Shown: in pieces, positions 1-26,248 of the stretch
How positions within the stretch are numbered: the stretch's first letter is position 1
Layout of the letters: the number at the start of each line of letters is the position of its first letter
Assembly (NCBI GenBank): GCA_030018495.1
Contig: JASEFS010000018.1
Span: 7,591 to 71,590 of the forward strand
Direction of reading: 5' to 3'
Length of the DNA: 64,000 nucleotides
Source of the DNA: Deltaproteobacteria bacterium
GTDB lineage: Bacteria; Desulfobacterota; Desulfobaccia; Desulfobaccales; 0-14-0-80-60-11
The notes under the pieces: model-generated
Database searches by the model: none
What the model saw: the letters and a program-made list of their open reading frames with translations, nothing else
Told to the model about the DNA's origin: nothing
Program-made: the position numbers and the translations under genes

Positions 1-71
1 CGGAAATCACATTGCCGCCTATAAATATGAGAAAGCGAAGCCGATTATAGCACTGCTACTTTTGAACTTTA

Positions 72-106
72 AATCACGAAAAGGCCCGGTGATGTTCGGG
101 CCCCTT
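72..106 (-). terminator. Rho-independent terminator candidate (end of antiporter/USP transcription unit)
   Basis: Minus strand reads GGGGCCCG-AACATCAC-CGGGCC followed by TTTTCGTGATTT, about 130 nt past the stop of the 234..671 ORF. Confidence 0.5.
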
Positions 107-233
107 CATAGTCATATCGCTGAAGAGACTGACCACGCCCGCAAGGATGATGAATTTTCAGGCCGCGGCTTGGGTTGAGGCTGTTGGCTTCCGGCTGTTT
201 TTGTTCATAAGGAGATTGGGGAAGGCTTCAGCC

Positions 234-671
234 TTAAGGGCCGGGGGTCAGCAATTCTTTGATATGGTCTAAATACCGGAGTATTTGATGGGCCCTGGGG
301 TCCAGGTAATCGATCAGTTCCGGCGGCGGTTCGCCAAAACCTCGCAGGTACTTGCCGGTCATTTCCGTGACGTCCACCCAGAGCAGGTAGCAGTGCCCCA
401 GGATGGTTTTGGCAACGTCCAGAGGGCTGGCTTCCAGGTGCAGGGAATCCCTTAATTCCTGCACGATGTCGCGGATGGCGGCAATATCCGCCGATAACTG
501 CGGCCGCCTTTCGGGATCAAGATTATTGGCTTCGTGGTAAAGGACGGAGTGCACTTCCCGCCCTTGGGCCCACTCCTGGAATTTAACCAAAGCTTCATCC
601 AACAGGGTGAGGGTTATCCGGATCCGGCTTCTCTGCGCCTCGCCAAGATTGGGGATGGGTCCCCTCTGCAT
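234..671 (-). CDS. hypothetical protein (145 aa)
   Basis: Uninterrupted ORF with a 42-nt gap to the upstream USP gene on the same strand; no family recognised. Confidence 0.6.
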   Translation of the reverse strand: MQRGPIPNLGEAQRSRIRITLTLLDEALVKFQEWAQGREVHSVLYHEANNLDPERRPQLSADIAAIRDIVQELRDSLHLEASPLDVAKTILGHCYLLWVDVTEMTGKYLRGFGEPPPELIDYLDPRAHQILRYLDHIKELLTPGP

Positions 672-713
672 GCCGCACTTTTCCTGTCAGGTTGTGGCGT
701 TTAACGAGGCTTG

Positions 714-1136
714 CTAACGCACGATGAGGACGCTACAAGGCGCGTGCCGGCTGACTTTTTCAGCAGTGGTGCCCAAGAAGGCGGCCCAGACCCCGGAGAG
801 CCCGGTATGGCCCACCAGCACTAAGTCGAACTTCCCTTCTCTGGCCACCTCCACAATAGTCTTGGCGGGATGTCCGGGCCGCATGATGGTTTTCAGCTCT
901 ATGCCGGCCTCTTGCGCCTGGGTGCGGGCTGATCTCAAAAGCTCGCCGTACTGCTGATCAGCAAACGCTTTTTCCTCCTGGACTTCATCAATGGTGCCGG
1001 CAAACTTGGGCAAGCCTTCCTGCACCGACAAGGCAACAAGCTCAGCCCCGTGAATTTTTGCCAGATTAATTCCCGCGTTCAGGGCTTTATTGGCCCCCTC
1101 CGAGCCGTCGTAGGCCAGCAAGATTTTTTTGTACAT
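714..1136 (-). CDS. universal stress protein (UspA family)
   Basis: 140 aa. N-terminal KKILLAYDGSE and C-terminal VGHTGLSG...VSRHAPCSVLIVR are typical Usp ATP-binding signatures. Confidence 0.85.
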   Translation of the reverse strand: MYKKILLAYDGSEGANKALNAGINLAKIHGAELVALSVQEGLPKFAGTIDEVQEEKAFADQQYGELLRSARTQAQEAGIELKTIMRPGHPAKTIVEVAREGKFDLVLVGHTGLSGVWAAFLGTTAEKVSRHAPCSVLIVR

Positions 1137-1322
1137 GTCGCCCCTCCAGAGCCGCTTTTTTAACCAGGGTCAGGCTGTTTTTAAGAAGGTAATTTCCCCC
1201 GGGCCGACAACCACGATCCGGTATGGCACCGGCCCGGGGGGGGTCCCCTAAAAGGGAGCGCTCATGGCCGCGCCCCTTTGTAGGCCAGGCAGTGAAGAAA
1301 CCTAAGAACATCGCGGGAGTGG

Positions 1323-2528
1323 TTACTCATCCGGCATATGCAGGAAGTGCTCGGTGGAGCCGATAAATTCCAGCTCGTATTCCCGGCCCAAGTTTACTTC
1401 CCGGGGCTGGAACCACACCTGTGCGATAATGGTTGGAACCACCGCCGAGGCGATGACGCCCGTCACCAAAATGGAGTACTGGTCTTGGTCAACATAGCCG
1501 TGGGTAAGGCCGAAGAGAGCGGAGATGCTGCCGAAAGTCAGGCCGGTTGCCATGAGCAGGGTGGTATAATTGCTCTCCCGCAGAGGCAGGCCGAAGAGCC
1601 GGCAGAGAGGCCAGATGCCCACAATTTTAGTAATCATCTTGGCCCAAAAAAGTGCCACGAGAATCCCAAAGCCGGCCACCAGGGCGGGCAAAGACACAAG
1701 GGTGCCGGCCTTGATGAAAAAGAAGGGGGTGAGCAAGGCGAAGGTGATGGCCCGCATGCGGTGGAGCATCACCTTGTCCTGAACGAACAGTCCGGCGATG
1801 ACCATGCCGAACAAGTAGGCTGGCAAGACCGCTTCACTGCGGGCCGTGACCGCCAGGGCCCCCAAGATGCAAAGCACCAGGAATATGAATTTAATTTCCG
1901 GCTCAATGACCCGGCCGCTCCAACGGGCAAAGGCCCAGCGGCAGATGGAGGGCAGCCGCCACAAGGCCACCACGGTCACCACCACAAAGACTATCAGCCA
2001 ACGATCATACTCGGCAAAAATCAACCCCAGGGCCAACACGGTCCCCAAATCGGTAACAAAGCAGGCCGTCAGGATGAGCTTTCCCAATTCGGTGTTGTTC
2101 AGCCCGGTCTCCACCATCACCGCGTAGACCACGGCCATGGAAGTGGTGGACAGGGCAATGCCCGCGATCTGGGCGGATTGCGGCTGCCACCCGCCGATGT
2201 AATAAGCATAGGCCATGCAGCCCAGGAAGGGGAACAGGAACGACATGGCGCCGATGGCCAGGCTGGGTCTCCACAGGCGTCGAAAGGCCTCGGGCTCGAT
2301 CTCGGCCCCGGCCAGGAAGGTCAGGACCACCGAAGCAAAGCCGGCCAAAAAATTGATCCAGGGGGTGGGCTTGAAAATGCCCCAGCCGAAGTAGGCGCCC
2401 AGGTTGCCCGCCACAAATCCCAGAAAAATCTCCACCAGCGCCACAGAAATGCCCAAGCGTATGGAGATGAGGCTGGCTAAAAGGGCTACACCGATCCAGG
2501 CCGCGGCGGTATACCAAACTTGTTCCAC
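1323..2528 (-). CDS. cation:proton antiporter (Na+/H+ exchanger family, CPA2-like)
   Basis: 401 aa, about 11-12 hydrophobic helices, sequence style of Na_H_Exchanger/Kef-type membrane domains; no C-terminal KTN domain. Confidence 0.8.
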   Translation of the reverse strand: MEQVWYTAAAWIGVALLASLISIRLGISVALVEIFLGFVAGNLGAYFGWGIFKPTPWINFLAGFASVVLTFLAGAEIEPEAFRRLWRPSLAIGAMSFLFPFLGCMAYAYYIGGWQPQSAQIAGIALSTTSMAVVYAVMVETGLNNTELGKLILTACFVTDLGTVLALGLIFAEYDRWLIVFVVVTVVALWRLPSICRWAFARWSGRVIEPEIKFIFLVLCILGALAVTARSEAVLPAYLFGMVIAGLFVQDKVMLHRMRAITFALLTPFFFIKAGTLVSLPALVAGFGILVALFWAKMITKIVGIWPLCRLFGLPLRESNYTTLLMATGLTFGSISALFGLTHGYVDQDQYSILVTGVIASAVVPTIIAQVWFQPREVNLGREYELEFIGSTEHFLHMPDE

Positions 2529-2574
2529 GTGAACCCTCCGCTTCTTCTTTTTTCCGGTCTCTCAAGAATGAATT

Positions 2575-2868
2575 TTACGATGAGTCTTTGGCATCATCAT
2601 CGACGATGGTTTCCCATTCCTCTCGAAAAGAATCCTTGTCAGTGAATGTCAAAGCAACAGTTTCCTCTGACTCGGGAGGCATATAATCCGATTCTTTCTG
2701 CAATACCAGCTTGACTGCCGGGATGTGCTCGGACTTGTCCTCTTGTCTCATTTCCTCAGCGCGCACATCTTCGGTGCCGGTTGAGTCCCAGGGAATCCTG
2801 CGGCCTCTGAGCTTCTGGATAAGGGCATAGGCCAGCAAGCCCACATAAATGATTACGACCAGGTCCAT
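2575..2868 (-). CDS. small membrane-anchored acidic protein (97 aa), first gene after fluoride riboswitch 1
   Basis: The ORF track starts at 2925, but that extension overlaps the riboswitch terminator. ATG at 2868 (MDLVVIIYVGLL...) is preceded by a GGGAGG SD. One N-terminal TM helix, then an acidic tail. Confidence 0.55.
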   Translation of the reverse strand: MDLVVIIYVGLLAYALIQKLRGRRIPWDSTGTEDVRAEEMRQEDKSEHIPAVKLVLQKESDYMPPESEETVALTFTDKDSFREEWETIVDDDAKDSS

Positions 2869-2902
2869 CCTGCCTCCCTTTGGGAGTATCCCAGGAAAGG
2901 CC

Positions 2903-3001
2903 AATAAAAAAACCCCTGTCCCCACCGGTAGTGAGAACAGGAGTCATCAGCTCGAGGCGCAGTTCGGCCGGTACGTTACCCGCCGGGCGGACTCCATCAC
3001 C
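2903..3001 (-). promoter_or_regulatory. fluoride riboswitch 1 (crcB motif, variant with enlarged internal region) plus competing terminator
   Basis: Minus strand: GGUGAUGGAGUCCGCC ... GAAC ... GCUGAUGACUCCUG. The P1 loop GGAGUC is complementary to downstream GACUCC (pseudoknot). CUCCUGUUCUCAC-UACCG-GUGGGGACAGGGG-UUUUUUU forms a terminator whose 5' arm reuses the pseudoknot strand. Confidence 0.7.
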
Positions 3002-3009
3002 TGGTTGAT

Positions 3010-3037
3010 TTTATAAACCCAGGCACCGGAATGTCAA
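3010..3037 (-). promoter_or_regulatory. sigma70-like promoter for riboswitch 1 operon
   Basis: Minus strand TTGACA (3037-3032), 16 nt, TATAAA (3015-3010), 8 nt before the first aptamer G at 3001. Confidence 0.6.
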
Positions 3038-3071
3038 TAAAGTGATATTGTGAACTTTATTTATTCTAAAA

Positions 3072-3100
3072 TTGACAAAAATAGGAGGCACTCTTAAATT
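3072..3100 (+). promoter_or_regulatory. sigma70-like promoter for riboswitch 2 operon
   Basis: TTGACA (3072-3077), 17 nt, TAAATT (3095-3100), 10 nt before the aptamer start at 3111. Confidence 0.6.
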
Positions 3101-3110
3101 AAAATTAATC

Positions 3111-3196
3111 GGCAATGAGGTCTGCCGCAAACCGCCCCGCTTGCTCAGGGCGGGGATGATGACTTCTGTCCAACGGGCAGAAGTCATTTTTTTTCT
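3111..3196 (+). promoter_or_regulatory. fluoride riboswitch 2 (crcB motif) plus competing terminator
   Basis: GGCAAUGAGGUCUGCC-GCAAAC-CGCCCCGC(UUGCUCA)GGGCGGGG-AUGAUGACUUCUG. Loop GAGGUC pairs with GACUUC. Terminator AUGACUUCUG-UCCAACGGG-CAGAAGUCAU followed by U8 overlaps the pseudoknot strand. Confidence 0.85.
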
Positions 3197-3225
3197 GCCG
3201 CTCACTTTAAAAAGGAGGGACCGCC

Positions 3226-3510
3226 ATGAAGGAGTTTGATGAAATCATTCGGGAAAAGGGGCTGCCCCGCGTGGGGCAGACGGTGCGCAGCAAGAAGTAC
3301 GGCACTCTTTGGCGAGTCATGGAAAAAAGAGAAATATGGCAGTCCATCGCCGATGACCCCCAAACCGGGGAACCGCGTATGATACCGGCTATTTTTTTAT
3401 CTTACTGGAAAATGCAGGAGGGCGGCCAGCCCGGTACCGGAAAAGTCATGGGATTTACCTATACCCTCTATGACAACACCTTTGCGACGCACTGGGAGGT
3501 TGTGCCCTGA
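3226..3510 (+). CDS. conserved small protein of unknown function (94 aa), paralog A, directly behind fluoride riboswitch 2
   Basis: AAGGAGGG SD 6 nt upstream of the ATG. About 72 of 94 residues are identical to the 9770..10057 product by manual alignment. Confidence 0.8.
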   Translation: MKEFDEIIREKGLPRVGQTVRSKKYGTLWRVMEKREIWQSIADDPQTGEPRMIPAIFLSYWKMQEGGQPGTGKVMGFTYTLYDNTFATHWEVVP

Positions 3511-3645
3511 CCTCCAAAGGATGGGTTAAAGGACATCGAAATGCTGGCATTGGAGTGTTGTTGATGACCGATATTGAATCATCCGATCCCCGAAAAATCT
3601 TCAATGGCCCCCCCTCTATCAGGAGAACCGGAAGGAGGTCCGACG

Positions 3646-3864
3646 ATGGGGAAGATTATCGAGCTCCGCCTGACCAAGAAGGCTGTTTACCGGGCCGCGG
3701 TAAAGGAAATGAATAAAATGTATCAGCTCTCTGCGGGCGGCACGGACCCGATCATCGATGAGGCGTCCAGATGGGCGTTTGAAAGAGGCGAAATAGACGA
3801 AGTGATATGGAAGGATTGGGGGTCTTACTGCGTAATGATGTTAAACAGAATAGGAAAAATCTAA
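3646..3864 (+). CDS. hypothetical small protein (72 aa)
   Basis: ATG at 3646 preceded by GGAAGGAGG; the longer track ORF from 3574 lacks an SD. No family recognised. Confidence 0.5.
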   Translation: MGKIIELRLTKKAVYRAAVKEMNKMYQLSAGGTDPIIDEASRWAFERGEIDEVIWKDWGSYCVMMLNRIGKI

Positions 3865-3958
3865 CTAGATAAGTTACTTAAAGAATCCTAAAAAGGCGAG
3901 ACTCTTTAATGTTCAGCAATGTGAAATAAATCTCAAACTATTAAGGAGGAACAGGATT

Positions 3959-5740
3959 ATGGCTAAGTATGACCCCACTAAAATGGAAGACTGGCAAATC
4001 GGTGAGCTCGCCGAAGAGGAGCTGGATTTCAACCGGCAATGTGACAAAATCGGCATCCTGCCCGAAGAGCGCATCCCCATGGGTCGGAAAATCGGCAAAG
4101 TTGACTACATGGCCATCCTGGAGCGCCTCAAGGACAGACCGGACGGCTATTATATCGATATCACCGCCATCACCCCTACTCCCCTGGGAGAGGGTAAGAC
4201 CGTGACCACCATGGGGTTGATTGAAGGCCTGGGCAAGCGGGGCGTGAACGTGGGCGGTGCCATCCGCCAGCCCTCGGGCGGCCCCACCATGAACATCAAG
4301 GGCACCGCGGCGGGCAGCGGCATAGCGCTCTTGATCCCGATGACCGACTTCTCCCTGGGACTCACCGGCGACATCAACGCCATCATGATCGCCAACAATT
4401 TAGCCATGGTGGCCCTGACCTCCCGGCTGCAGCACGAGTTCAATTACGATGATGAGCAACTGGCCAAAATCCCTCTCAAACGCTTGAACATCGATCCCAG
4501 AAGGGTGGAGATGAAATGGTGCTTTGACCTGTGCGCCCAGTCGCTGCGCAACATCACCATCGGCCGGGGCAGCAAGATGGACGGCTACATGATGGACTCC
4601 GGCTTCGTCATCGCGGTGGCCTCGGAAGTGATGGCCATCCTCTCCATGTTCAAAGACCTGCCGGACCTGCGCAAGAGGTTGGGCGAAATCACCGTGGCCT
4701 ATGACAAGAAGGGCAACCCGATTACCACCGAGGACCTGGAGTGCGCCGGGGCCATGACCGCCTGGATGTTTAAGACCATCAACCCCACTCTGTGCGCCAC
4801 CGTGGAATTGCAGCCGGTCTTCGTGCATGCCGGGCCCTTCGGCAACATCGCGGTGGCCCAGTCTTCCATCGTCGCCTGCCGGACCGGTCTGAAGCTCTTT
4901 GACTACCATTGCACTGAGTCCGGCTTCGGCTGCGACCTGGGCTTCGAGAAATTCTGGAACATCAAATGCCGGGAAAGCGGGCTCAAACCCAACGTAGCGG
5001 TGCTTACCAGCTCCATCCGGGCCCTCAAGCACCACGGGGTCAACGCCGGGGCTCTGCCCGTCCGGCCGGGAAAGCCCATTCCCCAGGAGTATTACACCTC
5101 CACCCCCGAGACTTTGGCCTGGCTGGAGGACGGCCTCAAGAACCTGGTCCACAACATCAATATCGTCAAGCAGTCCGGCATCAAGCCGGTGATCTCCATC
5201 AACCGCTTCCCCACCGATACCGATGAGGAGGTCAAGATGGTCAAACGGTGCGCCGAGGCCGAAGGGGTCCGGGCCGCGGAGGGCAACTACTGGCGCTATG
5301 GGGGTGAGGGAGCCCTGGAATTGGCTGACGCGGTCATCGACGCCTGCAAAGAGAAGGTGGACTTCCGGTTCCTTTATCCTACGGAGATGCCGCTGCGCCA
5401 AAAGATTGAAACCATCGCCACCAAAGTGTATGGAGCCAGCGGAGTAGTTTATACGCCCGAAGCTGAGGCCAAGGCGAAGGCTTTTGAAGCCGATCCCAAG
5501 TTCAAAGATTATCACGTAATGATGGTGAAGACGCATCTGTCGTTGACCCACGATCCCACCCGGAAGGGCGTCCCCAAGGGCTGGGACCTGGCGGTCCGGG
5601 ACTTTCTGCTGTACAGCGGCGCCAAGTACATCTGTCCATGTACCGGCACCATCTCACTTATGCCCGGCACCAGCTCCAACCCGGCCTTCCGGAGGGTGGA
5701 CGTGAATCTCGAGACCGGCAAACCTTACGGCCTGTTCTAA
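3959..5740 (+). CDS. fhs: formate--tetrahydrofolate ligase (divergent FTHFS family member)
   Basis: 593 aa. Contains [10 protein letters not shown](V)TT P-loop, [37 protein letters not shown] and a C-terminal GLF, collinear with canonical FTHFS. The glycine-rich loop is altered ([18 protein letters not shown]). Confidence 0.85.
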
Positions 5741-5784
5741 ATGAGGCTTTTTACCACAGGAACCCAGAGTCTAAGGTGTTTTCT

Positions 5785-5813
5785 CGGCTCCCGGGGGCAA
5801 TCTCCGGGAGCCG
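5785..5813. terminator. GC-rich hairpin between convergent fhs and chrB-like genes (possible terminator, no clear U-run)
   Basis: CGGCTCCCGG-GGGCAATCT-CCGGGAGCCG, a perfect 10-bp stem. Confidence 0.3.
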
Positions 5814-5906
5814 GGTGGGCCTATCATACCTAATCCGGCAAGAAAACTTTGGAGGCCTGCCCGGGGTAACTCACTTCTAATTACAAGCACTTGGCCGCCT
5901 GCATAA

Positions 5907-6437
5907 CTAAATTTTGGCTTGGGTGCGCTCATAAACTTTTCTTGCAAAATCATCAAGCATCTTTTCACAAATTTTTATCTTCTCCAAAGCGGTTTTCCTA
6001 AGAGGAGCCTTAATTACATCCCGTTTTTCCACTTTTCTGAACCACTGCTTTAATTTTTCCAGTTCTTCCTCGTTTTCCTCGACTTCCGCGAAGATGAAGT
6101 TCTGTCTTTGAATTTCATATTCCATCTCTTTAAAATAAGCTTCACACTTGTCTATAATTTCCTTATACTCTTCATTTCTGGACTCGGTAAAAGCTTCGAC
6201 GATGAGTTCTTCTTGCTCTTTACTGAGAATTTTTCCCACAATTAACAAGCCCATTCCTTTGAATCCTTTAATATTTTCGATAAGCTTATTGAATTCATTG
6301 ACTCGTTCTGAAGAATACGGGGCCACCCATACCGTCTGGTAGTTGACGGCTCCAATTTTTCTCAACTGCCGCCAAACAAAGACCCTGGCTTTGGAAGGGG
6401 TTGTCGGCAAACTATACGAAAAGAACAGCCATTTCAT
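5907..6437 (-). CDS. ChrB N-terminal-domain-like protein (176 aa)
   Basis: N-terminus MKWLFFSYSLPTTPSKARVFVWRQLRKIGAV resembles the ChrB_N signature (SLPt..s..R...WR.L...GA). The gene is markedly AT-richer than its neighbours. Confidence 0.55.
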   Translation of the reverse strand: MKWLFFSYSLPTTPSKARVFVWRQLRKIGAVNYQTVWVAPYSSERVNEFNKLIENIKGFKGMGLLIVGKILSKEQEELIVEAFTESRNEEYKEIIDKCEAYFKEMEYEIQRQNFIFAEVEENEEELEKLKQWFRKVEKRDVIKAPLRKTALEKIKICEKMLDDFARKVYERTQAKI

Positions 6438-6563
6438 GGAAATACGCCGCCTACCCCCCAGAATGCGAAGTCCCGTCTCCGGGTGGCGTCGGTCGGAAGG
6501 AAATCCGGCAGGGAGCCACCCGACTACTCACTGAGTCCATGCGATTGCGGCATTATATCATCT

Positions 6564-7529
6564 TCAAATCTTCAGGCCCAACATGACTGTTCCGACCACG
6601 AACAGAACATAAAGGGCCATGAGGGTAATGCCCACCCAGCGAGGCGTATGGCCCCGCCAAACGATTATCAGCAAAATGAGCCAACTCAAGGCCACGGCGG
6701 GGAAAAAATAATCCAAAGCCACCGCTTCCACCGTCAGGGGGCGGATCAGGGCGCAAATTCCCAAGGTAAACAGCAGTTGAAAAAAAGAACTGCCCGCGAC
6801 GTTTCCGATAACCACTTCCGGGTGTCCCTTTTGGGCCGGGATGATGGCTTCCACCAATTCCACGGAATTGGCGGCGATGGCCAGCAGGGTCAAACCGAGA
6901 ATGGTCTCCGCGATGCCGGTCCAGATTAGGACCGCTTTCACCCCCTTGATCACCAGGAGAGCGCCCACCACCAAGCCGATGAGCCCGCCCACCAACATGA
7001 GGGGGAAGTGCCAGGCCGGCTCCCGGATGATCTTCTCCACCTCTTCTTCCGCTTCCTCAATCTCCTCCTTGGCAGCCCTGGTTCGCCGCAAGTCGGTGAT
7101 CAGGTAAGCCATGAAAGCCCCGTAAACTCCCAGGACAATAAAGCCATCGGGACGGCTGATCTCCCCGTCAAAGGCCAAAAGGAAAACCAGCAGGAGGACG
7201 CCGCCCAGCATCCAAATGTATTTCAGGGGGAAATCAGGGTGTCTGATGGGAAAAAGGGCCGCCGCCGAGCCCAGGGCGAGAAATATTAAAAAGATAACCG
7301 TGCCCAGGATACTGCCGAAGGCCAGGGCCGTCAGGTGCTGGTAAGCGCCGATGACTGCCGGGGCAAATTCCTCCAGGTCGATGCTGATGATCAGCATGGC
7401 CAGAACAAACGGCGTTACTGCCAAACGGGCGGCCAGGCCGACCAACCCCTCTACCAGGTACTTGGCCGCGAAGATGAGGATCAACACACCGACCAGCAAT
7501 GAGCCGATATTTATATAAAGATTTTCCAC
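6564..7529 (-). CDS. Ca2+/cation antiporter family protein (CaCA, YrbG-like)
   Basis: 321 aa, two hydrophobic halves separated by an acidic loop (EEIEEAEEEVE). Alpha-repeat-like GSILGTVIF and GNVAGSSFF motifs. GTG start with a GGAGG SD. Confidence 0.75.
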   Translation of the reverse strand: MENLYINIGSLLVGVLILIFAAKYLVEGLVGLAARLAVTPFVLAMLIISIDLEEFAPAVIGAYQHLTALAFGSILGTVIFLIFLALGSAAALFPIRHPDFPLKYIWMLGGVLLLVFLLAFDGEISRPDGFIVLGVYGAFMAYLITDLRRTRAAKEEIEEAEEEVEKIIREPAWHFPLMLVGGLIGLVVGALLVIKGVKAVLIWTGIAETILGLTLLAIAANSVELVEAIIPAQKGHPEVVIGNVAGSSFFQLLFTLGICALIRPLTVEAVALDYFFPAVALSWLILLIIVWRGHTPRWVGITLMALYVLFVVGTVMLGLKI

Positions 7530-7564
7530 AGTTGCCTCCAGAAAGACAGTTGCCTCCAGAAAGA
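7529..7564. repeat. perfect 18-bp tandem duplication (2 copies) covering the SD of the CaCA gene
   Basis: cagttgcctccagaaaga occurs at 7529-7546 and again at 7547-7564. Confidence 0.95.
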
Positions 7565-7626
7565 AAAAGTCTTAGAGATAATTGAAATAAATGATACATA
7601 TATAGAATAAGAAAATCAAATAATAT

Positions 7627-7644
7627 ATGTAATAATTATTACAT
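7627..7644. promoter_or_regulatory. perfect 18-bp palindrome, candidate operator in the CaCA/chrB-like upstream region
   Basis: ATGTAATAA|TTATTACAT is exactly self-complementary and sits in an AT-rich intergenic region. Confidence 0.3.
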
Positions 7645-7751
7645 TTTTAATGGAAAGGCTTACCTTGAAGCCCTTTAAAGTTTGCCCGATGAAAAGACTT
7701 AACGTAATAATTTTCTTAAAAAATGTTTATTTTAGACAAAATTTCTTCTAA

Positions 7752-7780
7752 TTGACAATTGGGCAGGAATATTTTAATTT
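7752..7780 (+). promoter_or_regulatory. sigma70-like promoter for riboswitch 3 operon
   Basis: TTGACA (7752-7757), 17 nt, TAATTT (7775-7780), 10 nt before the aptamer. Shares AATTGACAA with the riboswitch 2 promoter. Confidence 0.6.
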
Positions 7781-7790
7781 CATCTACAAA

Positions 7791-7873
7791 GGTGATGAAG
7801 TCCGCCATAACCGCCCTGCCTTCCCAGGCGGGGATGATGACTTCTGTCCAGTAGCCGGGCAGAAGTTTTTTTT
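7791..7873 (+). promoter_or_regulatory. fluoride riboswitch 3 (crcB motif) plus competing terminator
   Basis: GGUGAUGAAGUCCGCC-AUAAC-CGCCCUGCC(UUCCC)AGGCGGGG-AUGAUGACUUCUG. Loop GAAGUC is perfectly complementary to GACUUC. Terminator ACUUCUGUCC-AGUAGCC-GGGCAGAAGU followed by U8. Confidence 0.85.
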
Positions 7874-7895
7874 CGCCCGGTCCCAGGAGGACCAT

Positions 7896-9650
7896 ATGGG
7901 AACCTTTCAACAACTCCAGGAGGCCCTGGAGAGGCAGCTTACCCAATTGGCGCGCCTGCCGGAATTTCAGGGTCCCGGCTTGCCCCGGATTTTGGAGAAA
8001 CTGCGACAGAACCGCTTTCATCTGGTGGTGCTGGGGGCTTTCAAGCGGGGCAAAAGCACCCTGATCAACGCCCTGCTGGGCGACCCCATCCTGCCCACCG
8101 CCATCATCCCCCTGACTTCGGTGGTCACCATCCTCACCTATGGGGAGAGTCTGACCATCGAGGTGCGCTTCCATAACGGCCAGCGCCGGCAGATTTCCCA
8201 AGCCGAACTGGTGGATTACATAACCGAGAAGGGCAATCCCGGCAACCGCAAGGGAGTTCAGGAAGTCGAGATTACCTACCCTTCCGACTACCTCAAAGAA
8301 GGAGTGCGGATCATCGACACTCCCGGGGTGGGCTCGGTTTACAGCCATAACACCGACGTGGCTTATAATTACCTGCCCCAAGTGGACGCCGCCATCTTCG
8401 TGGTTACCGTGGACCCGCCCCTGTCCGCGGCGGAGCAGGAGTTTTTGCAGGATATCAGGGAGTTTGTCCACAAGATCTTTTTTGTCCTCAACAAGATTGA
8501 TTACGTGGAGGCCGCGGAGCGGCAGGAAGCCCTGGATTTCACCTCCCAGGTCCTGGCGGCCAACCTGGCAGCCTGCCCGGTGGCAATCTTTCCCCTGTCC
8601 GCCAAGATGGCCCTGGACGGCAAGACCAATGGCCACCCGGAACTCCTGGAGGCGAGCCTCCTGCCCCAATTCGAGGAGCACTTGCGCCAGTTCCTCTACC
8701 GGGAAAAGGGGCGGGTGCTGCTGATTTCCTGCGTCAGCGGGGCCTTGAAGGCCATCACCGACTCCACCCTGGCCCTCAAGGTGGAACGCCAGGCCAGCGG
8801 CCTGCCCTTGAAGGAACTGGAAGAAAAAATCGCCCGCTTTGATCTGGAATTGCAAGGACTGGAAAAAGAGCGGGAGATGTCCCTGCTCCTGCTGGACGGC
8901 CGGGTCAAAGGCGTGGTGGCGCAAGTGGACGCCGACCTGGAGGCTTTTAGAAAAGAAACCACCGCCCGTCTGCGCCGGGAGGTGGAGGCGACCTTCCAGC
9001 AAAAAAGCCGGGCCGCTCTGGACCTGCGGAAAGAGATGGAAGAATTCCTCTTCGCGGCGCTCAGAGATGTCTTCACCACTTGGCGGCGCCAGGAGATCGA
9101 GAAGCTTTCCCAGATATTGGCCGAGACCCACCAGGACTTCGCCGGCCGTATCAACGCCATCCTGGAGCGGCTGACCCAGTTGACCGCCCGCATCTTCGAT
9201 TTTTCCTTGCGGGGCTTTGCGGTGGAGGAAGCCTTCACGGATTTGCGGCAATTCTGGTTCAGGTTTAAGGAAGACCCGGTGGGGCTGGAAATACTGCAGA
9301 TGACCGTTACTTCCCTCTTGCCCAGGGCCCTGACCAAGGGGTTGCTCCTGAAAAAGCTGTTGGAAAATGTCACGGAGTTGGTGGACAAGCACTGCGGGCG
9401 GCTGCGCTATGACTTTCACCAGCGCCTCCAGGAGATTGCCCGGGACTTCCGCCAGACCTGGCTCGCCAGAATTGACGACACCACCCGGAGCATCCGCCAG
9501 GCCCTGGAGCGGGCCCGGGCTCAAAAGCAGACCAGCGCCCAGGCCGTCGCGGCCCGGGCGGGACAACTGGACCAGAGCCTGGCTGAAATCCTGAAGGCCG
9601 AAGCGCAATTGTTAGCCTTGAAGGAGCGCATTGAAGCGACCGTGCATTAA
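7896..9650 (+). CDS. dynamin-family GTPase (bacterial dynamin-like protein, 584 aa)
   Basis: GAFKRGKST (G1), IIDTPG (G3), LNKID (G4), then a long helical/coiled-coil C-terminal half. ATG at 7896 follows an AGGAGG SD; the track extension from 7752 overlaps the riboswitch. Confidence 0.8.
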   Translation: MGTFQQLQEALERQLTQLARLPEFQGPGLPRILEKLRQNRFHLVVLGAFKRGKSTLINALLGDPILPTAIIPLTSVVTILTYGESLTIEVRFHNGQRRQISQAELVDYITEKGNPGNRKGVQEVEITYPSDYLKEGVRIIDTPGVGSVYSHNTDVAYNYLPQVDAAIFVVTVDPPLSAAEQEFLQDIREFVHKIFFVLNKIDYVEAAERQEALDFTSQVLAANLAACPVAIFPLSAKMALDGKTNGHPELLEASLLPQFEEHLRQFLYREKGRVLLISCVSGALKAITDSTLALKVERQASGLPLKELEEKIARFDLELQGLEKEREMSLLLLDGRVKGVVAQVDADLEAFRKETTARLRREVEATFQQKSRAALDLRKEMEEFLFAALRDVFTTWRRQEIEKLSQILAETHQDFAGRINAILERLTQLTARIFDFSLRGFAVEEAFTDLRQFWFRFKEDPVGLEILQMTVTSLLPRALTKGLLLKKLLENVTELVDKHCGRLRYDFHQRLQEIARDFRQTWLARIDDTTRSIRQALERARAQKQTSAQAVAARAGQLDQSLAEILKAEAQLLALKERIEATVH

Positions 9651-9769
9651 CAGCCGCTGGTCCATCCGAATTAACTTGCATCGGTTGAATATGGACTTAA
9701 CATAATTGAGGCGGGGGACGCTGAATATGCTTTTGTCAAAAGATCAATCTTGCTCAAGAGGAGGCGGCA

Positions 9770-10057
9770 ATGAAGGAGTATGACGAGATCATCCGGCAAA
9801 AGGGTCTGCCCCGCGTGGGACAGACGGTGCGCAGCAAAAAGTACGGTACTTTGTGGCGCGTCATGGAGAAAAAGGAGATTTGGCGCAACATCGATCCCGA
9901 CCCCCAAACCGGCGAACCCCGCATGGTCCCGGCCATCTACCTCCTTTACTGGAAGGTTCAGGAAGGAACCCCGCCCGGGGTAGGTAAAATGATGGGCTAC
10001 GAATACACCCTGTACGACAACACCTTTGCCTTAAACTGGGATATCGTCCAAGATTAG
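9770..10057 (+). CDS. conserved small protein of unknown function (95 aa), paralog B
   Basis: GAGGAGG SD; about three quarters identical to the 3226..3510 product. Confidence 0.8.
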   Translation: MKEYDEIIRQKGLPRVGQTVRSKKYGTLWRVMEKKEIWRNIDPDPQTGEPRMVPAIYLLYWKVQEGTPPGVGKMMGYEYTLYDNTFALNWDIVQD

Positions 10058-10068
10058 GCACCTGCCAC

Positions 10069-10106
10069 ACCCGGATTGGGGAGTATTCCGATCCGGGTTT
10101 TCTTTA
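10069..10106 (+). terminator. Rho-independent terminator after paralog B
   Basis: ACCCGGAT-(14 nt)-ATCCGGGT followed by TTTTCTTTAAATTT. Confidence 0.65.
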
Positions 10107-10150
10107 AATTTGGTCAACCACTTTTGCAAAAACAGCGGGGGGCATACGAA

Positions 10151-10786
10151 ATGACCCAAATTATCCTGGTGCGCCACGGCCAAACGCCCTGGAACAAGGA
10201 CAAGATTTTTCGAGGCTCCAAAGACATCCCCTTGAACGACCAGGGGCAAGAGGAAGCCCGCCTGGCCGGGGAATGGCTCAAAGGTGAGACCATTCATGCG
10301 GTTTATACTTCGCCTCTTTCCCGCTCCCGGGATACAGCCCTGGCCATTGCCCGACACCACGGCCTTCAAGTCACGGATTTGCCGGGTCTGAGCGATCTCT
10401 GCTATGGTGATTGGGAAGGTCTGCCCTTAACCGAGGTCAAAGTGAAATATGCTGACCTTTACCGCCAATGGGAGACAGCTCCCCACACAGTGCGCTTCCC
10501 TGGGGGTGAAACTCTGGAGGAGTTGCGCAGCCGCGCCATGGCTGCGGTAAATGAAGTAGTTCAACGACACCCCGGCCAGGTTGTCCTGCTTTCGGCTCAT
10601 CGCGCCGTCAACAAAGTCTTGATCGCCGCTCTCATCGGCCTGGACAATTCCCACTTCTGGCGCATCGGCCAGGATACTACTGCAGTCAACCGTTTTCACC
10701 TGGTCGGCGATGTCTGGCACATCATGTCGATAAACGATGCCTGCCACCTGCGCGGGATGCAACGCGGCGAGTACGTGGATTTTTGA
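10151..10786 (+). CDS. histidine phosphatase family protein (phosphoglycerate mutase-like)
   Basis: N-terminal ILVRHGQTPWN (RHG catalytic motif), later LSAHRAV. ATG at 10151. Confidence 0.8.
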   Translation: MTQIILVRHGQTPWNKDKIFRGSKDIPLNDQGQEEARLAGEWLKGETIHAVYTSPLSRSRDTALAIARHHGLQVTDLPGLSDLCYGDWEGLPLTEVKVKYADLYRQWETAPHTVRFPGGETLEELRSRAMAAVNEVVQRHPGQVVLLSAHRAVNKVLIAALIGLDNSHFWRIGQDTTAVNRFHLVGDVWHIMSINDACHLRGMQRGEYVDF

Positions 10787-10873
10787 TTCCTATCAGGGAG
10801 CTTCACCCTGTTCGCAGGCCAGCGCGCGATTTTAGCCGGTTATTGCCGGTTATTAATACATGGCCGCGGAGTC

Positions 10874-11290
10874 ATGAGATTTTATTGTCCCCGATGCTGG
10901 CAGGATTTTGACAAGGACTTGTCTCGCTGCCCTTACTGCGGCCTTGATATTCACGGATTCTGGAAGTCAAAAGATTACGTGGAAAAATTGATCGTCGCCT
11001 TAAACCATCCGGAACCGGAAACTCCCATCCGGGCGGCGTGGCTTTTGGGAGAACTCAAGGACCCCCGGGCAGTTGAGCCGTTAATCAGGTTGATAAAATA
11101 TACTGAAGATGTGTACATTGCCCAGGCCGCAGTTGAGGCTTTGGGGAAATTTGAAACACCCGAGTCCCTGCATTTCCTGGACACTTTGGTTCATCACCCG
11201 GTCAAAATGGTCAGAGACACGGTGCTGCAAATCCTGGCCTCGCGAAATCGACACCGCCCCTCAACTGAGAAAGGAAAGGAAAATGTATGA
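10874..11290 (+). CDS. zinc-ribbon plus HEAT-repeat protein (138 aa)
   Basis: CPRC...CPYC at the N-terminus, followed by PBS-lyase/HEAT-like repeats ([29 protein letters not shown]). Confidence 0.65.
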
Positions 11291-12558
11291 GTAATAAAAT
11301 CACTTCCGTCCAGGCCATGGAAATCCTTGATTCCCGCGGCAACCCGACGCTTCGTGCTTATGTAACTCTGGACAACGGCATTTCTGCCTCTGCCTCCGTG
11401 CCTTCCGGCGCTTCCACCGGCGAGAACGAAGCCGTGGAATTGCGGGATGGAGATAAAAAGCGCTATGGCGGCAAAGGCGTGTTGAGAGCCGTAGAAAACG
11501 TCAACACGGTTATCGCCTCCCGCCTCATTGGCCATGACCCCAGTCGCCAGGCCGAAATCGACCGCCTCCTGATCGAACTGGATGGCACCTCCAATAAAAG
11601 CAACTTGGGCGCCAACGCTATTCTGGGGGTGTCCATGGCGGTGGCCCGGGCCGCGGCGCAGTCCGCGCAGATCCCTCTTTACCAATATCTCGGTGGGGCT
11701 GGGGCAAGAAGATTGCCGGTCCCCTGCATGAACATCGTCAACGGCGGCCAACATGCCGACAACAGTGTGGACATCCAGGAATTCATGGCTGTTCCCATCG
11801 GCGCGCCTTCTTTCCGGGAGGGACTGCGTTACGTGGCGGAAACCTTCCATACCCTTAAGGGAATTTTGAAGGCTCGGGGCCTGGCGACCAGCGTTGGTGA
11901 CGAGGGCGGCTTCGCGCCGAATTTTTCCAGCAACGAGGATGCCATAGAAACGATCCTGCAGGCGATTGACAAGGCAGGCTACAAGCCCGGGGAGCAGATT
12001 GCCATTGCCTTGGACAGCGCCGCGAGTTCCTTTGCGCTGGATCGGGTCGGGGAGTACGACCTGAAGCGCTCCCGAGCCGGAAGAAAGACCAGCAGTGAGC
12101 TTATTGCTATGGCCGGCGAATGGCTCGAGAAATACCCCATCGTTCTCTGGGAAGACCCGTTGGCGGAAGGGGATTGGGAGGGATTTAAGCAGTTTACGGC
12201 TAAATATGGCGGGAAAATCGAAGTTGTCGGCGACGACATCTTTGTCACCAATACAAAATACATAGCCAGGGGGATCAAAGAAGGCACCGCGAATTCGGCG
12301 CTGATCAAGCTGAACCAGATCGGCACCGTAACTGAAACGATCGAAGCAGTGCGCATGTGCCGTGAGGCGGGTTGGCGCTATTTCCTCTCGCATCGGTCCG
12401 GAGAGACGGAAGACACCTTTCTGGCGGATTTTGCCGTCGCCATGGATGGGGGGCACCTCAAGACCGGCTCGGCAAGCCGCAGCGAGCGGATCGCCAAATA
12501 CAACCGCTTGTTGGAAATCGAGCAGGAGATTGGGAAAGAAGCTTTGTTTTACTGGTGA
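11287..12558 (+). CDS. eno: enolase (phosphopyruvate hydratase)
   Basis: 423 aa. [30 protein letters not shown] and [20 protein letters not shown] motifs. The ATG overlaps the upstream stop (ATGA). Confidence 0.95.
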
Positions 12559-12793
12559 TCGCTTTCTTTAGAATACAAACAAAGCGCTGCATCGGACGGC
12601 CGGGCAAAATCCTGAATGATGCTTCGGGGCCATTGGAGGCTTCATAAAACCTTGCCAGCCTCCCGCAGATATGGGAAAATGGACGCAAGGCGGGATATGA
12701 TCGAGGAGGAACCTTCTATACCGGCCCTCCGTAAACCGTCTGTGGCTGATAATGAATAAATGAATACATCTGCTAAAACAAGGAGTTAATCAG

Positions 12794-12835
12794 GGAGAAT
12801 GCGGGTTGGATTCCCGCGCCTCCACCATTTTTCTT
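12794..12835 (+). terminator. hairpin plus T-run (terminator candidate, tRNA-minihelix-like)
   Basis: GGAG-AAT-GCGGG-TTGGATT-CCCGC-G-CCTCC-ACCA-TTTTTCTT. Confidence 0.4.
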
Positions 12836-13014
12836 CCAAATCCTTCCAACAGAAAATTTGCTTCTCATAATCTACTGGCGGCTCGGGATTTATTGCAGCT
12901 TTTCACCATCTGGCCTTTATTTCAAACAGCAGTCGGAAGGAATCTATTTTTATCCAAATATGATATTATACGGTTCGAATCAGGATCCTTCCCAGAGGAC
13001 CGGAGGCGCGCTGG

Positions 13015-13719
13015 ATGCGAATAATTTCGGAAGCAAGAAAGATGCGCCGGGCGGACAAAACCAAGGAATCTTTGAAGGTGGCGCGGGCTGCTCTCGAAGC
13101 AGAGACCCAGGAAGTTGTCCGGACATCTAAAAACCTGAATGAAAATTTAGGCAAAGCCGTAAAGAGTATTTGGCGGCAGCTGCTTTTTCTTTGGGCCATA
13201 GTGGCCATCCTGGCGATCTCCTATTTATGGGTCCTGAAAAGTACTCCCAAGGCCATAAACCTGGTAGAGGCGCCACAGGCCCAAAGCATGCAGGGTAAGC
13301 TGCTGCCGCCCGCCACACCTGCTCCCCAGACTCCTGATCCTGCCTCAATCCCCGCCGGAGAGGATTTGATCAAACTGCTCAACCAAATTCGGGAGGCTCA
13401 GCTAAAAAAAGATATTCAATTGTTTTTAAAGGCTTATTCTTCTGATTTCGTCAACTTGAAGCAAAAAAAGGACCTGACCCTGAATATATGGAGAAGGTAT
13501 GATTACATAGATTTGCAATATCAATTAAGCAACGTTATCCAAGAAGATGATTCCACCATACTGGCGCTGGTGACCTGGGATATCAAAGCTCGGGATCACA
13601 AAACCGATGACGTCAAACTACTCACAAAATCTTATAAAGTCCAATTTTTCAGAGAATCCTCAGGTAACTGGCTGGTCCAAAAACTGGAACCCGTCGATGA
13701 AAATGAATTGGAGACTTAA
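13015..13719 (+). CDS. membrane-anchored hypothetical protein (234 aa)
   Basis: One TM helix (LLFLWAIVAILAISYLWVL), a Pro-rich linker and a C-terminal ~110-aa domain that looks NTF2/SnoaL-like (weak guess). Start uncertain (13015 or 13042). Confidence 0.55.
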   Translation: MRIISEARKMRRADKTKESLKVARAALEAETQEVVRTSKNLNENLGKAVKSIWRQLLFLWAIVAILAISYLWVLKSTPKAINLVEAPQAQSMQGKLLPPATPAPQTPDPASIPAGEDLIKLLNQIREAQLKKDIQLFLKAYSSDFVNLKQKKDLTLNIWRRYDYIDLQYQLSNVIQEDDSTILALVTWDIKARDHKTDDVKLLTKSYKVQFFRESSGNWLVQKLEPVDENELET

Positions 13720-13756
13720 CTTGGGCTTTTCTGCTGTTCTTTCCACTCAATCAAGA

Positions 13757-14626
13757 ATGTTGCAGACGCTATTATTAATTTTATTATTAGTTTTTATCAA
13801 CGCCTGTGCAGCCCCTGTTAAACAAAATGTTCTTTACAGTATCCCCACGGTTACTTATTTGCGCGAGTGCCCTGATTATGACTGCCAGGTGGTAGGCGAG
13901 ATATTTAACGGCGATCAGGTGCTGGTTTTGAATAAAACCGACACAGGCTGGTGGCGGGTGCAATCCGAGCGCGACCAGAAGATTGGTTGGACTCAGCGAG
14001 ATTTGCTCAGTGAGTCCCAGATCAGCGTAAAAGAGTACATTATTGCGAAGGACGGCACTCCTTTGCGGGATTCTCCCAGCCAGGACATGGTTTCCCGGAC
14101 CAATTTGGCCTTGGGAGACCGCATTCAGAAACTGGTCGAACGTAACGGCTGGTGGCGAGTCCTGGTAGAAAAAGACAAATCCATAGGGTGGATTCCAGCC
14201 GGGGTGGCTTCTGAATTGCCGCCCAAGCCCACCACCACGGCAACTATGATTAAGACAGTGTCTGAAGAGCCCGGCCAAGCTGCTTCCCCTGCCAAGCCTG
14301 ACTCAGAAGCCGGTCAACTCTTTGTCGCCGCCGAGAACGTCACTCTGCACCTCATTCCCTTTAAGGAATCCAAGGTAATAAGGGAATTAACCATAAACGA
14401 CAAAGTAGTAAAAATTTCCCAGTCAGGCTCTGAGTGGATCAAGGTGAGATACCTGGAAACAGGTGCGGAAGGATGGGCCCTGGCCCACTACTTTAAGGAA
14501 ACACCGGTAAAGGCCAGAGCTCAGATTGTCACGGAAAAGGGCAAAGCTCAGAAAAAATCTCCTGAGAAAAAACCGCTTACTCCGGATCCGTTCAAATCGG
14601 AAACGCTGGAGCCCGAAGGCATGTGA
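13757..14626 (+). CDS. lipoprotein with three bacterial SH3-like repeats
   Basis: Signal peptide with lipobox LLLVFINAC. Three repeats of the GWWRV...IGW / WIKVRY...GW type. Start chosen at the ATG just after the upstream stop. Confidence 0.65.
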   Translation: MLQTLLLILLLVFINACAAPVKQNVLYSIPTVTYLRECPDYDCQVVGEIFNGDQVLVLNKTDTGWWRVQSERDQKIGWTQRDLLSESQISVKEYIIAKDGTPLRDSPSQDMVSRTNLALGDRIQKLVERNGWWRVLVEKDKSIGWIPAGVASELPPKPTTTATMIKTVSEEPGQAASPAKPDSEAGQLFVAAENVTLHLIPFKESKVIRELTINDKVVKISQSGSEWIKVRYLETGAEGWALAHYFKETPVKARAQIVTEKGKAQKKSPEKKPLTPDPFKSETLEPEGM

Positions 14627-26100: not shown

Positions 26101-26156
26101 AAGGCGGTGAGACCACCACCCAAACCTTTGAGAAAGGTTCTGCGGGAAATGCCCAT
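23103..26156 (-). CDS. fdnG: formate dehydrogenase alpha subunit, selenocysteine-containing, Tat-exported (one gene split into two ORFs by in-frame UGA at 25592..25590)
   Basis: Twin-arginine signal MGISRRTFLKG. CPFCGVGC Fe-S motif. ...ETQARL-UGA-HSSTVASLGPTFGRGAMTNHWND matches the FdnG/FdhA Sec active-site context. Both ORFs are in the same frame. Confidence 0.9.
25544..25584 (-). promoter_or_regulatory. SECIS-like hairpin downstream of the UGA codon
   Basis: Minus strand CUCCACGG-UGGCCUCGUUGGGGCCCACCUUUGG-CCGUGGAG starts 5 nt after the UGA, with an inner GGCC/GGCC helix. Confidence 0.55.
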
Positions 26157-26248
26157 TTTCCCTCCCATTTAAATTTGGAATTCTGCGGTCTAATAGAAAG
26201 GATAAATCATTGTTTGCCGGACTATCACCTCCTTTTTCCATATACAAA

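Follow-up and report, generated by a model that had tools for sequence, protein, structure and literature searches.

Transcription control by fluoride riboswitches of the crcB class typically follows a fluoride-ON antitermination design, which is standard for the class (PMC2864571; PMC8752731). Na+/H+ antiporters form the second most common class of genes associated with these switches according to a 2024 review (PMC11139923), and they are also known to accompany genes for enolase, pyrophosphatase (PPase), formate hydrogen lyase and mutS (PMC11139923, PMC2864571). Here we analysed a stretch of 64,000 nucleotides from a Deltaproteobacteria bacterium of the Desulfobaccales (contig JASEFS010000018.1, positions 7,591 to 71,590), hereafter the window, for which an earlier note made from the sequence had proposed two fluoride riboswitches placed back to back on opposite strands between positions 2903 and 3196. 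The analysis indicates that this region very probably holds two fluoride-ON riboswitches that control transcription in cis and independently of each other, each with its own promoter, the two promoters standing back to back.

The full window was scanned with cmscan against 4227 Rfam families at curated thresholds. Only three matches were above threshold, all of them to RF01734 (fluoride riboswitch / crcB motif), for which the gathering score is 34 bits. Two of the three stand on opposite strands within the region in question (44.2 and 37.9 bits), and the Rfam search that the earlier note had suggested as a check thus agreed with its identification of both elements. Both matches are far beyond chance. 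That one of them might be the mere reverse complement of the other was considered and rejected, the two matches being non-overlapping and 91 nt apart. A permissive E-value scan of the window gave zero further fluoride matches, and a search with our own model and with filters off for a fourth, degenerate aptamer upstream of the Na+/Ca2+ exchanger gene (7530-7780) and in the rest of 1-14000 gave trivial terminator-complement matches only. Promoters were called by consensus scan and scored out of 12 hexamer matches, and terminator-like sites were scanned for as well. The elements of the two switches are listed below.

3072..3077, plus strand: −35 hexamer TTGACA of the plus promoter (10/12 matches together with the −10 hexamer, spacer 17)
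3095..3100, plus strand: −10 hexamer TAAATT of the plus promoter, ending 10 nt ahead of the G that opens P1 (3111)
3102..3175, plus strand: fluoride riboswitch aptamer (RF01734 44.2 bits, E 5.6e-9, model positions 1-64; 64.2 bits with model R1, see below)
3111-3114 with 3123-3126, plus strand: P1, GGCA/UGCC, with loop AUGAGGUC
3117-3122 with 3161-3166, plus strand: pseudoknot, GAGGUC with GACUUC, 6/6 pairs, one of them G.U
3130-3132, plus strand: AAC junction
3134/3135-3142 with 3148-3155/3156, plus strand: P2
3158..3196, plus strand: intrinsic terminator of the plus unit (stem-loop 3158-3188, U8 run 3187-3194, −16.6 kcal/mol)
3032..3037, minus strand: −35 hexamer TTGACA of the minus promoter (11/12 matches together with the −10 hexamer, spacer 18)
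3008..3013, minus strand: −10 hexamer TAAAAT of the minus promoter, ending 6 nt ahead of the G that opens P1 (3001)
2931..3010, minus strand: fluoride riboswitch aptamer (RF01734 37.9 bits, E 6.7e-7, model positions 1-64; 53 bits with model R1)
3001-2998 with 2989-2986, minus strand: P1, GGUG/CGCC, with loop AUGGAGUC
2965..2985, minus strand: hairpin inserted after the 3' strand of P1 and ahead of the AAC junction, present in the minimum free energy (MFE) and centroid folds
2964-2962, minus strand: AAC junction
2960-2957 with 2953-2950, minus strand: P2, 4 pairs, of which 3 are Watson-Crick and one is a G.A mismatch
2945-2940, minus strand: 3' pseudoknot strand GACUCC, pairing with GGAGUC at 6/6 positions
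2903..2945, minus strand: intrinsic terminator of the minus unit (stem-loop 2945-2911, U7 run 2912-2906, −20.7 kcal/mol)

Direct reading of the plus strand at 3111-3168 gave GGCAAUGAGGUCUGCC GCAAAC CGCCCCGC UUGCUCA GGGCGGGG AUGAUGACUUCUG, and direct reading of the minus strand from 3001 gave GGUGAUGGAGUCCGCC, next CGGCGGGUAACGUACCGGCCG and next AAC U GCGC CUC GAGC UGAUGACUCCUG, both exactly as quoted in the earlier note. The hallmarks of the class, among them those on which that note had based its assignment, were found in both copies: P1 of the form GGnG...CnCC with the AUGnnGUY loop, the AAC junction, P2, the (U/A)GAUGA segment, and a loop/tail pseudoknot of 6 bp in each. It had also claimed that the 3' pseudoknot strand doubles as the 5' arm of a terminator ending in seven U on the minus strand and eight on the plus strand, and the terminator scan and the folds gave the same picture. 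The 5' arm of the plus terminator includes this strand and that of the minus terminator is formed by it, and both terminator hairpins are present in the MFE folds, each with a 5' arm that begins within the GAUGACUYC tail.

For comparison, 77 genomic loci of Desulfobaccales/Syntrophobacterales-type genomes were fetched around homologues of p94, the 94-residue product of the first gene of the plus unit, and their gene classes were assigned by labelling against reference proteins. The first 12 of these loci contained 25 fluoride aptamers at Rfam gathering scores. A covariance model, R1, was built from 28 sequences (these 25 and the 3 window copies) and run on all loci, yielding 124 good aptamers in 63 of 79 sources after four weak long matches had been removed; leaving out a duplicate contig as well reduces the count to 122. 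Over the 124 distinct aptamers, pairing was 97.8% for P1, 99.7% for the pseudoknot and 90% for P2. Compensatory changes were found at 8 of 14 pairs, including all 4 pairs of P2 and also pairs of P1; values as high as those observed did not arise in any of 500 shuffles, and the slid controls collapsed. Since P1 and P2, but not the pseudoknot, had guided the fitting of the alignment, the result for the pseudoknot, in which pair 17-212 alternates between A-U (69) and G-C (48), is the more independent one. A terminator using the pseudoknot strand and followed by a T-run was present in 114 of 122 aptamers. Promoter-like sites with at least 9 of 12 matches were located upstream of 65 of 119 aptamers, as against 14% of shuffled controls, and in 59 of these 65 the −10 hexamer ends 6-16 nt before P1.

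In the window, the two P1 stems are separated by a core of 109 nt with 28% GC, the whole window having 57%, in agreement with the AT-rich core described earlier. The −35 boxes are 34 bp apart, and the spacer between them has 18% GC. The earlier note had given TTGACA promoters with a spacer of 16 or 17 and a TAnAnn −10 hexamer for both switches; both promoters are present at the right distance and the plus spacer is 17, whereas the minus spacer proved to be 18. Because the −10 boxes end 6 and 10 nt before P1, the transcripts should start practically at the aptamers.

Based on this anatomy, we propose the following mode of regulation. The region 2903-3196 would be a compact bidirectional cassette, in which two back-to-back sigma-70-type promoters in the 109-bp AT-rich core each direct a transcript starting essentially at P1 of its own fluoride aptamer. 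When fluoride is absent, the 3' pseudoknot strand (GACUYC) would be taken as the 5' arm of the strong terminator, and transcription would stop after about 95-100 nt. When fluoride is present, binding as an Mg2+-F- cluster would lock the P1 loop and the 3' tail in their pseudoknot, the terminator would be blocked and RNA polymerase would read through. The leftward output would be a small membrane protein, an Na+/H+ exchanger, a universal stress protein (Usp) and a 145-aa protein, and the rightward output p94, a small protein and formate--tetrahydrofolate (THF) ligase, the two switches being cis-acting and independent of each other, each on a transcript of its own. The order of promoter, aptamer and terminator fits the classic fluoride-ON antitermination design, as the earlier note had supposed, and an Na+/H+ antiporter and Usp downstream, together with an enolase-containing unit close by, fit the known regulon. 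Fluoride binding, the ON polarity in vivo, the transcription start sites and the independence of the two arms are what we infer from sequence.

Several observations weigh against this proposal. The transcription starts are predicted ones and would leave almost zero leader 5' of P1. The promoter hexamers of the window differ from the better-conserved core of its relatives, and therefore the promoter assignment rests on consensus matching. The minus aptamer is just 3.9 bits over the RF01734 threshold, and its P2 is short and includes the G.A mismatch. Finally, no CrcB fluoride exporter is encoded in the 64-kb window: tblastn with the proteins of related loci detected none of CrcB, DUF190-CBS, PPase, MutS-like and Hyc-like genes there, a CLC-F exporter not having been specifically searched for, so the island should hold only accessory response genes.

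The minus aptamer differs from the plus aptamer by the extra sequence CGGCGGGUAACGUACCGGCCG, which is 18 nt long as an insertion relative to the Rfam model and 21 nt as delimited in the earlier note, where it was described as about 20 extra nucleotides making a structural variant. The description holds beyond the window: 12-20 extra nt, placed after the 3' strand of P1 and before the (G/A)AAC junction, were found in 37 of the 122 related aptamers, and every one of these inserts folds into a hairpin despite differing sequences. When 33 inserts were aligned by anchoring the outermost 7 nt at either end, 6 of 7 pairs of the insert stem showed compensatory changes (for instance C-G 9, U-A 9, U-G 3 and A-U 2 at one pair), and 0 of 500 shuffles matched this. 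As such an anchored alignment is artificial, RNAalifold was also run on 31 full-length aptamers with the insert, aligned without bias by MAFFT; besides the pseudoknot and P2, it independently recovered the insert stem (columns 27-31 paired with 43-47). Judged by this covariation, the insert is a genuine conserved extra hairpin that marks a sub-lineage of aptamers. We found no mention of an extra hairpin in the P1-P2 junction in the searchable literature, a scope that does not take in the original consensus descriptions. Insert-bearing aptamers were located on Na+/H+ exchanger, small97, Hyc-like, MutS-like and some p94 units, and none was seen on dynamin-first units among the related aptamers.

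Across the related loci, a total of 38 divergent minus/plus pairs was detected in 59 aptamer-bearing loci, the duplicate contig being excluded. The distance from P1 to P1 in these pairs ranges from about 90 to 283 nt, with a median of ~120 and mostly 90-140. An exchanger unit on the left faces a dynamin unit on the right in 10 pairs, a CrcB-DUF190/CBS unit faces a dynamin unit in 5, and a small97 or exchanger unit faces a p94 unit, as in the window, in 7; further combinations include Hyc-like with p94, MutS-like with p94, and p94 with dynamin. The flanking units thus recombine among loci. The insert is solely on the arm opposite plus-oriented p94 or dynamin in 27 of the 38 pairs and on the p94/dynamin arm in 0, while seven stand-alone or opposite-arm p94 units carry it. 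The inter-aptamer core shows good conservation among relatives of the window's type, including TTGAC(T) −35 boxes. On these sequences, the divergent arrangement is a module that this clade conserves, and no description of such a layout of fluoride riboswitches was found in the searchable literature.

Two other features of the related loci were noted. A semi-conserved inverted repeat, CTTT-N6-8-AAAG, lies between the −35 and −10 hexamers of the plus promoter in loci L003, L004, L006, L007, L008, L010 and L011, and could possibly be an operator; it is missing from the core of the window itself. Some relatives are extremely dense in aptamers: L020 (3092-9149) has six in ~6 kb, two of which lie on the same strand with about 430-480 nt between them, L012 (3989-8553) has five in 4.6 kb, and L013 (4920-8539) is another such locus.

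These results bear on three alternatives to a pair of independent switches. The minus element could be a decaying or non-functional copy, only the plus element being at work, in which case the Na+/H+ exchanger operon would be constitutively terminated or constitutively expressed. Such decay would agree with the lowest Rfam score among the three window aptamers (37.9 against the gathering score of 34), with a P2 of 3 Watson-Crick pairs only plus the G.A mismatch, and with the absence of P1 from the MFE fold of the naked minus RNA. The G.A mismatch, however, recurs in the P2 of the orthologue in L007, and the insert hairpin, the short P2 and the terminator architecture are kept in 37 aptamers of different genomes, with compensatory substitutions in the insert stem and a perfectly retained pseudoknot, whose strand is employed by the minus terminator as it is in canonical copies. 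As the peculiar features of the minus copy are kept across genomes, we regard its decay as highly improbable. Coupling of the two arms, through a protein regulator bound to the core, through supercoiling or through competition for RNA polymerase, would mean that the cassette integrates a second signal or coordinates both units beyond the riboswitches. The close spacing of the −35 boxes and the low GC content between them are in line with coupling, as are the conservation of the relatives' core outside the hexamers and the inverted repeat found in it, and the tight conserved P1-to-P1 spacing suggests selection on the whole cassette. The repeat, however, does not occur in the window core, no regulator gene is consistently adjacent in the related loci, and AT-richness with conservation is expected of any strong promoter pair with UP-like elements, so that coupling appears unlikely.

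The remaining alternative concerns the insert-bearing sub-lineage, the function of which might have shifted in fluoride threshold, in kinetic window or even in ligand, with the consequence that the two divergent units fire at different fluoride levels. With 20 nt more to be transcribed before the pseudoknot strand emerges, a different threshold or kinetic window could result, and the kinetics of RNA folding have been found to determine riboswitch sensitivity in vivo (PMC10996619). The confinement of the insert to particular units, in divergent pairs always away from the plus-oriented p94/dynamin arm, and the selection on its stem point in the same direction. On the other side, neither the core nucleotides nor the pseudoknot has changed, which makes an altered ligand unlikely; the associated genes are standard genes of the fluoride regulon, and the hairpin could be a neutral decoration inherited within the lineage. 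Taken as a whole, a shift of function is a serious but doubtful possibility. A broader version of this idea, in which a conserved, reusable cassette of Desulfobaccales/Syntrophobacterales-type bacteria pairs a hairpin arm with a plain arm of different fluoride threshold or kinetics, and p94 and the dynamin-like GTPase are new fluoride-tolerance effectors, is put forward as a speculation that we consider rather improbable. If true, the ion-homeostasis genes, for Na+/H+ exchanger, CrcB, Hyc and MutS-like proteins, and those for p94, dynamin-like GTPase, formate-THF ligase and enolase would be induced at different fluoride levels.

The genes under the two predicted switches are as follows.

2575..2868, minus strand: 97-aa protein with hydrophobic N-terminus and acidic tail, gene 1 of the minus unit (ribosome-binding site GGGAGG 7 nt upstream)
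1323..2528, minus strand: Na+/H+ exchanger of CPA2 type, gene 2 of the minus unit (PF00999 E 4e-36; NCBIfam CPA2)
714..1136, minus strand: universal stress protein of the minus unit (PF00582 E 3e-33)
234..671, minus strand: 145-aa conserved hypothetical protein, syntenic in L004, L007 and L032
3226..3510, plus strand: p94, 94 aa, gene 1 of the plus unit
3646..3864, plus strand: 72-aa hypothetical protein (96 aa from an upstream TTG start), gene 2 of the plus unit, syntenic in at least 10 loci
3959..5740, plus strand: formate--tetrahydrofolate ligase, gene 3 of the plus unit (PF01268 E 4e-199)
9770-10057, plus strand: paralogue of p94, 77% identical, belonging to the unit of the third riboswitch described below

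On the minus strand, the 145-aa protein gene is probably the last of the unit inside the window. The 97-aa protein gave no Pfam or NCBIfam match, and weak homologues were found at the same position in L007, L016 and L022. Its open reading frame is also called as a gene on an identical public contig; the exchanger protein was matched on one public contig identical to the window (Logan SRR23186779). On the plus strand, the 72-aa protein matched no family of Pfam or NCBIfam, and p94 has no model in either collection. More than 585 homologues of p94 were found, all labelled "hypothetical", in Desulfobaccales, Syntrophobacterales/Syntrophobacteraceae, Nitrospirota and similar metagenome-assembled genomes, and the mean column identity among 25 diverse members is 80% across orders. 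The AlphaFold2 model of p94 (pLDDT, the predicted local distance difference test score, 87) has one helix and an antiparallel sheet, and a fold search against PDB gave no match at E<=0.001. About 100 copies of p94 were counted in the 77 loci, which had been chosen around p94, and nearly all lie within fluoride-riboswitch units; p94 is the first gene in 36 units of the clade. In L002, the p94 of which is the closest in the genome contigs searched (87% identical), no aptamer turned up immediately before p94, the only one of the locus being 2.3 kb downstream, and therefore the adjacency of p94 and riboswitch is not universal. From its gene neighbourhood p94 is a candidate for a new fluoride-response protein. 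Behind the aptamers of the window or the related loci we also found genes for CrcB, DUF190, PPase, Hyc-like, MutS-like, Na+/H+ antiporter and enolase proteins.

The third Rfam match, outside the finding of the earlier note, belongs to the same island.

7782..7853, plus strand: third fluoride aptamer (RF01734 45.4 bits, model positions 1-64)
7896-9650, plus strand: dynamin-like GTPase (PF00350)

This riboswitch has its own promoter, TTGACA-17-TAATTT, and its own terminator at 7839-7875. The genes behind it encode the dynamin-like GTPase, the p94 paralogue, a branch-1 histidine phosphatase, a HEAT-repeat protein and enolase, and the dynamin-like GTPase is the commonest first gene behind fluoride aptamers in the clade (39 units). 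The stretch from the formate-THF ligase gene to the third riboswitch encodes, at 5907-7529 on the minus strand, a ChrB_N-domain protein and an Na+/Ca2+ exchanger, both missing at that position from syntenic relatives such as L007. The Na+/Ca2+ exchanger gene is divergent from the third riboswitch and has no aptamer of its own. Directly upstream of its GTG start, at 7529-7564, there is a perfect 18-bp tandem duplication (CAGTTGCCTCCAGAAAGA x2), by which the GGAGG ribosome-binding site of the gene is doubled.

Elsewhere in the window, a molybdopterin oxidoreductase gene at 23103-26168 (minus strand) is split into two in-frame open reading frames by a TGA at 25590-25592. The context of the split is the formate-dehydrogenase motif ...QARL-U-HSSTVASLGPTFGRGAMTNH, and a sub-threshold SECIS_3 match (39 bits, E 2.5e-5) at 25537-25595 on the minus strand starts at the TGA. 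By its sequence the split gene almost certainly codes for a selenocysteine-containing FdhA and is not a pseudogene.

The elements described here belong to an ordinary, well-understood class of riboswitch, found by the standard Rfam model, so the finding opens no new category. As a natural bidirectional fluoride-inducible cassette of ~300 bp, the region may be reusable for biosensing or synthetic biology, and aptamers with and without the hairpin in one cell would allow a comparison of how peripheral elements tune co-transcriptional switching. The p94 protein, the dynamin-like GTPase, formate-THF ligase and the histidine phosphatase, which dominate the regulon of this clade and are not known to be linked to fluoride, are candidates for new fluoride-tolerance functions, with possible relevance to organofluorine bioremediation.

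Among the known systems, the Bacillus cereus crcB switch shares with both window elements the GGnGAUGnnGUnCnCC P1 hairpin, the AAC junction, a short P2, the GAUGAC-UCC tail and the loop/tail pseudoknot, and also the use of the 3' pseudoknot strand as the 5' arm of the terminator, by which ligand binding prevents termination. Unlike that system, the window has two switches facing apart across a 109-bp promoter core, one of its aptamers carries the extra hairpin in the P1-P2 junction, and the units controlled are antiporter/Usp and p94/formate-THF ligase in place of the CrcB exporter. In the crystal structure of the Thermotoga petrophila aptamer, reportedly that of Ren et al. in 2012, the phosphates of the Mg2+3-F- cluster are said to come from the AUG after P1 and from the UG of the AUGAC tail, and the crystallised RNA is said to have a minimal junction and no inserted hairpin. 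The segments concerned are present in both window aptamers, whereas the plus aptamer differs in its 8-bp extended P2; we know of no structure for the insert-bearing form.

Tandem riboswitches, such as the glycine tandem (PMC13018625), likewise place several aptamers of the same class in one short control region. Those aptamers, however, share one transcript, on which they may cooperate or form logic gates, whereas the window aptamers are on opposite strands and separate transcripts, each with its own promoter and terminator and pointing apart, so that cooperation at the RNA level is impossible for the pair and it does not count as a tandem. With respect to gene content, the island and its relatives are in agreement with the fluoride 'super-regulon' of Baker et al. 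2012, as reviewed in PMC11139923 and PMC7266159, in Na+/H+ antiporter, enolase, CrcB, DUF190, H+-pyrophosphatase, formate-hydrogenlyase-like subunits, MutS-domain protein and Usp. The dynamin-like GTPase, p94, formate-THF ligase and the branch-1 histidine phosphatase are not among the associated genes named in the reviews covered, a scope that does not extend to the complete list of genes in Baker et al. 2012. In contrast to the super-regulon, it is the dynamin-like GTPase and p94 that are the commonest first genes in this clade, and formate-THF ligase and the branch-1 histidine phosphatase are also common there.

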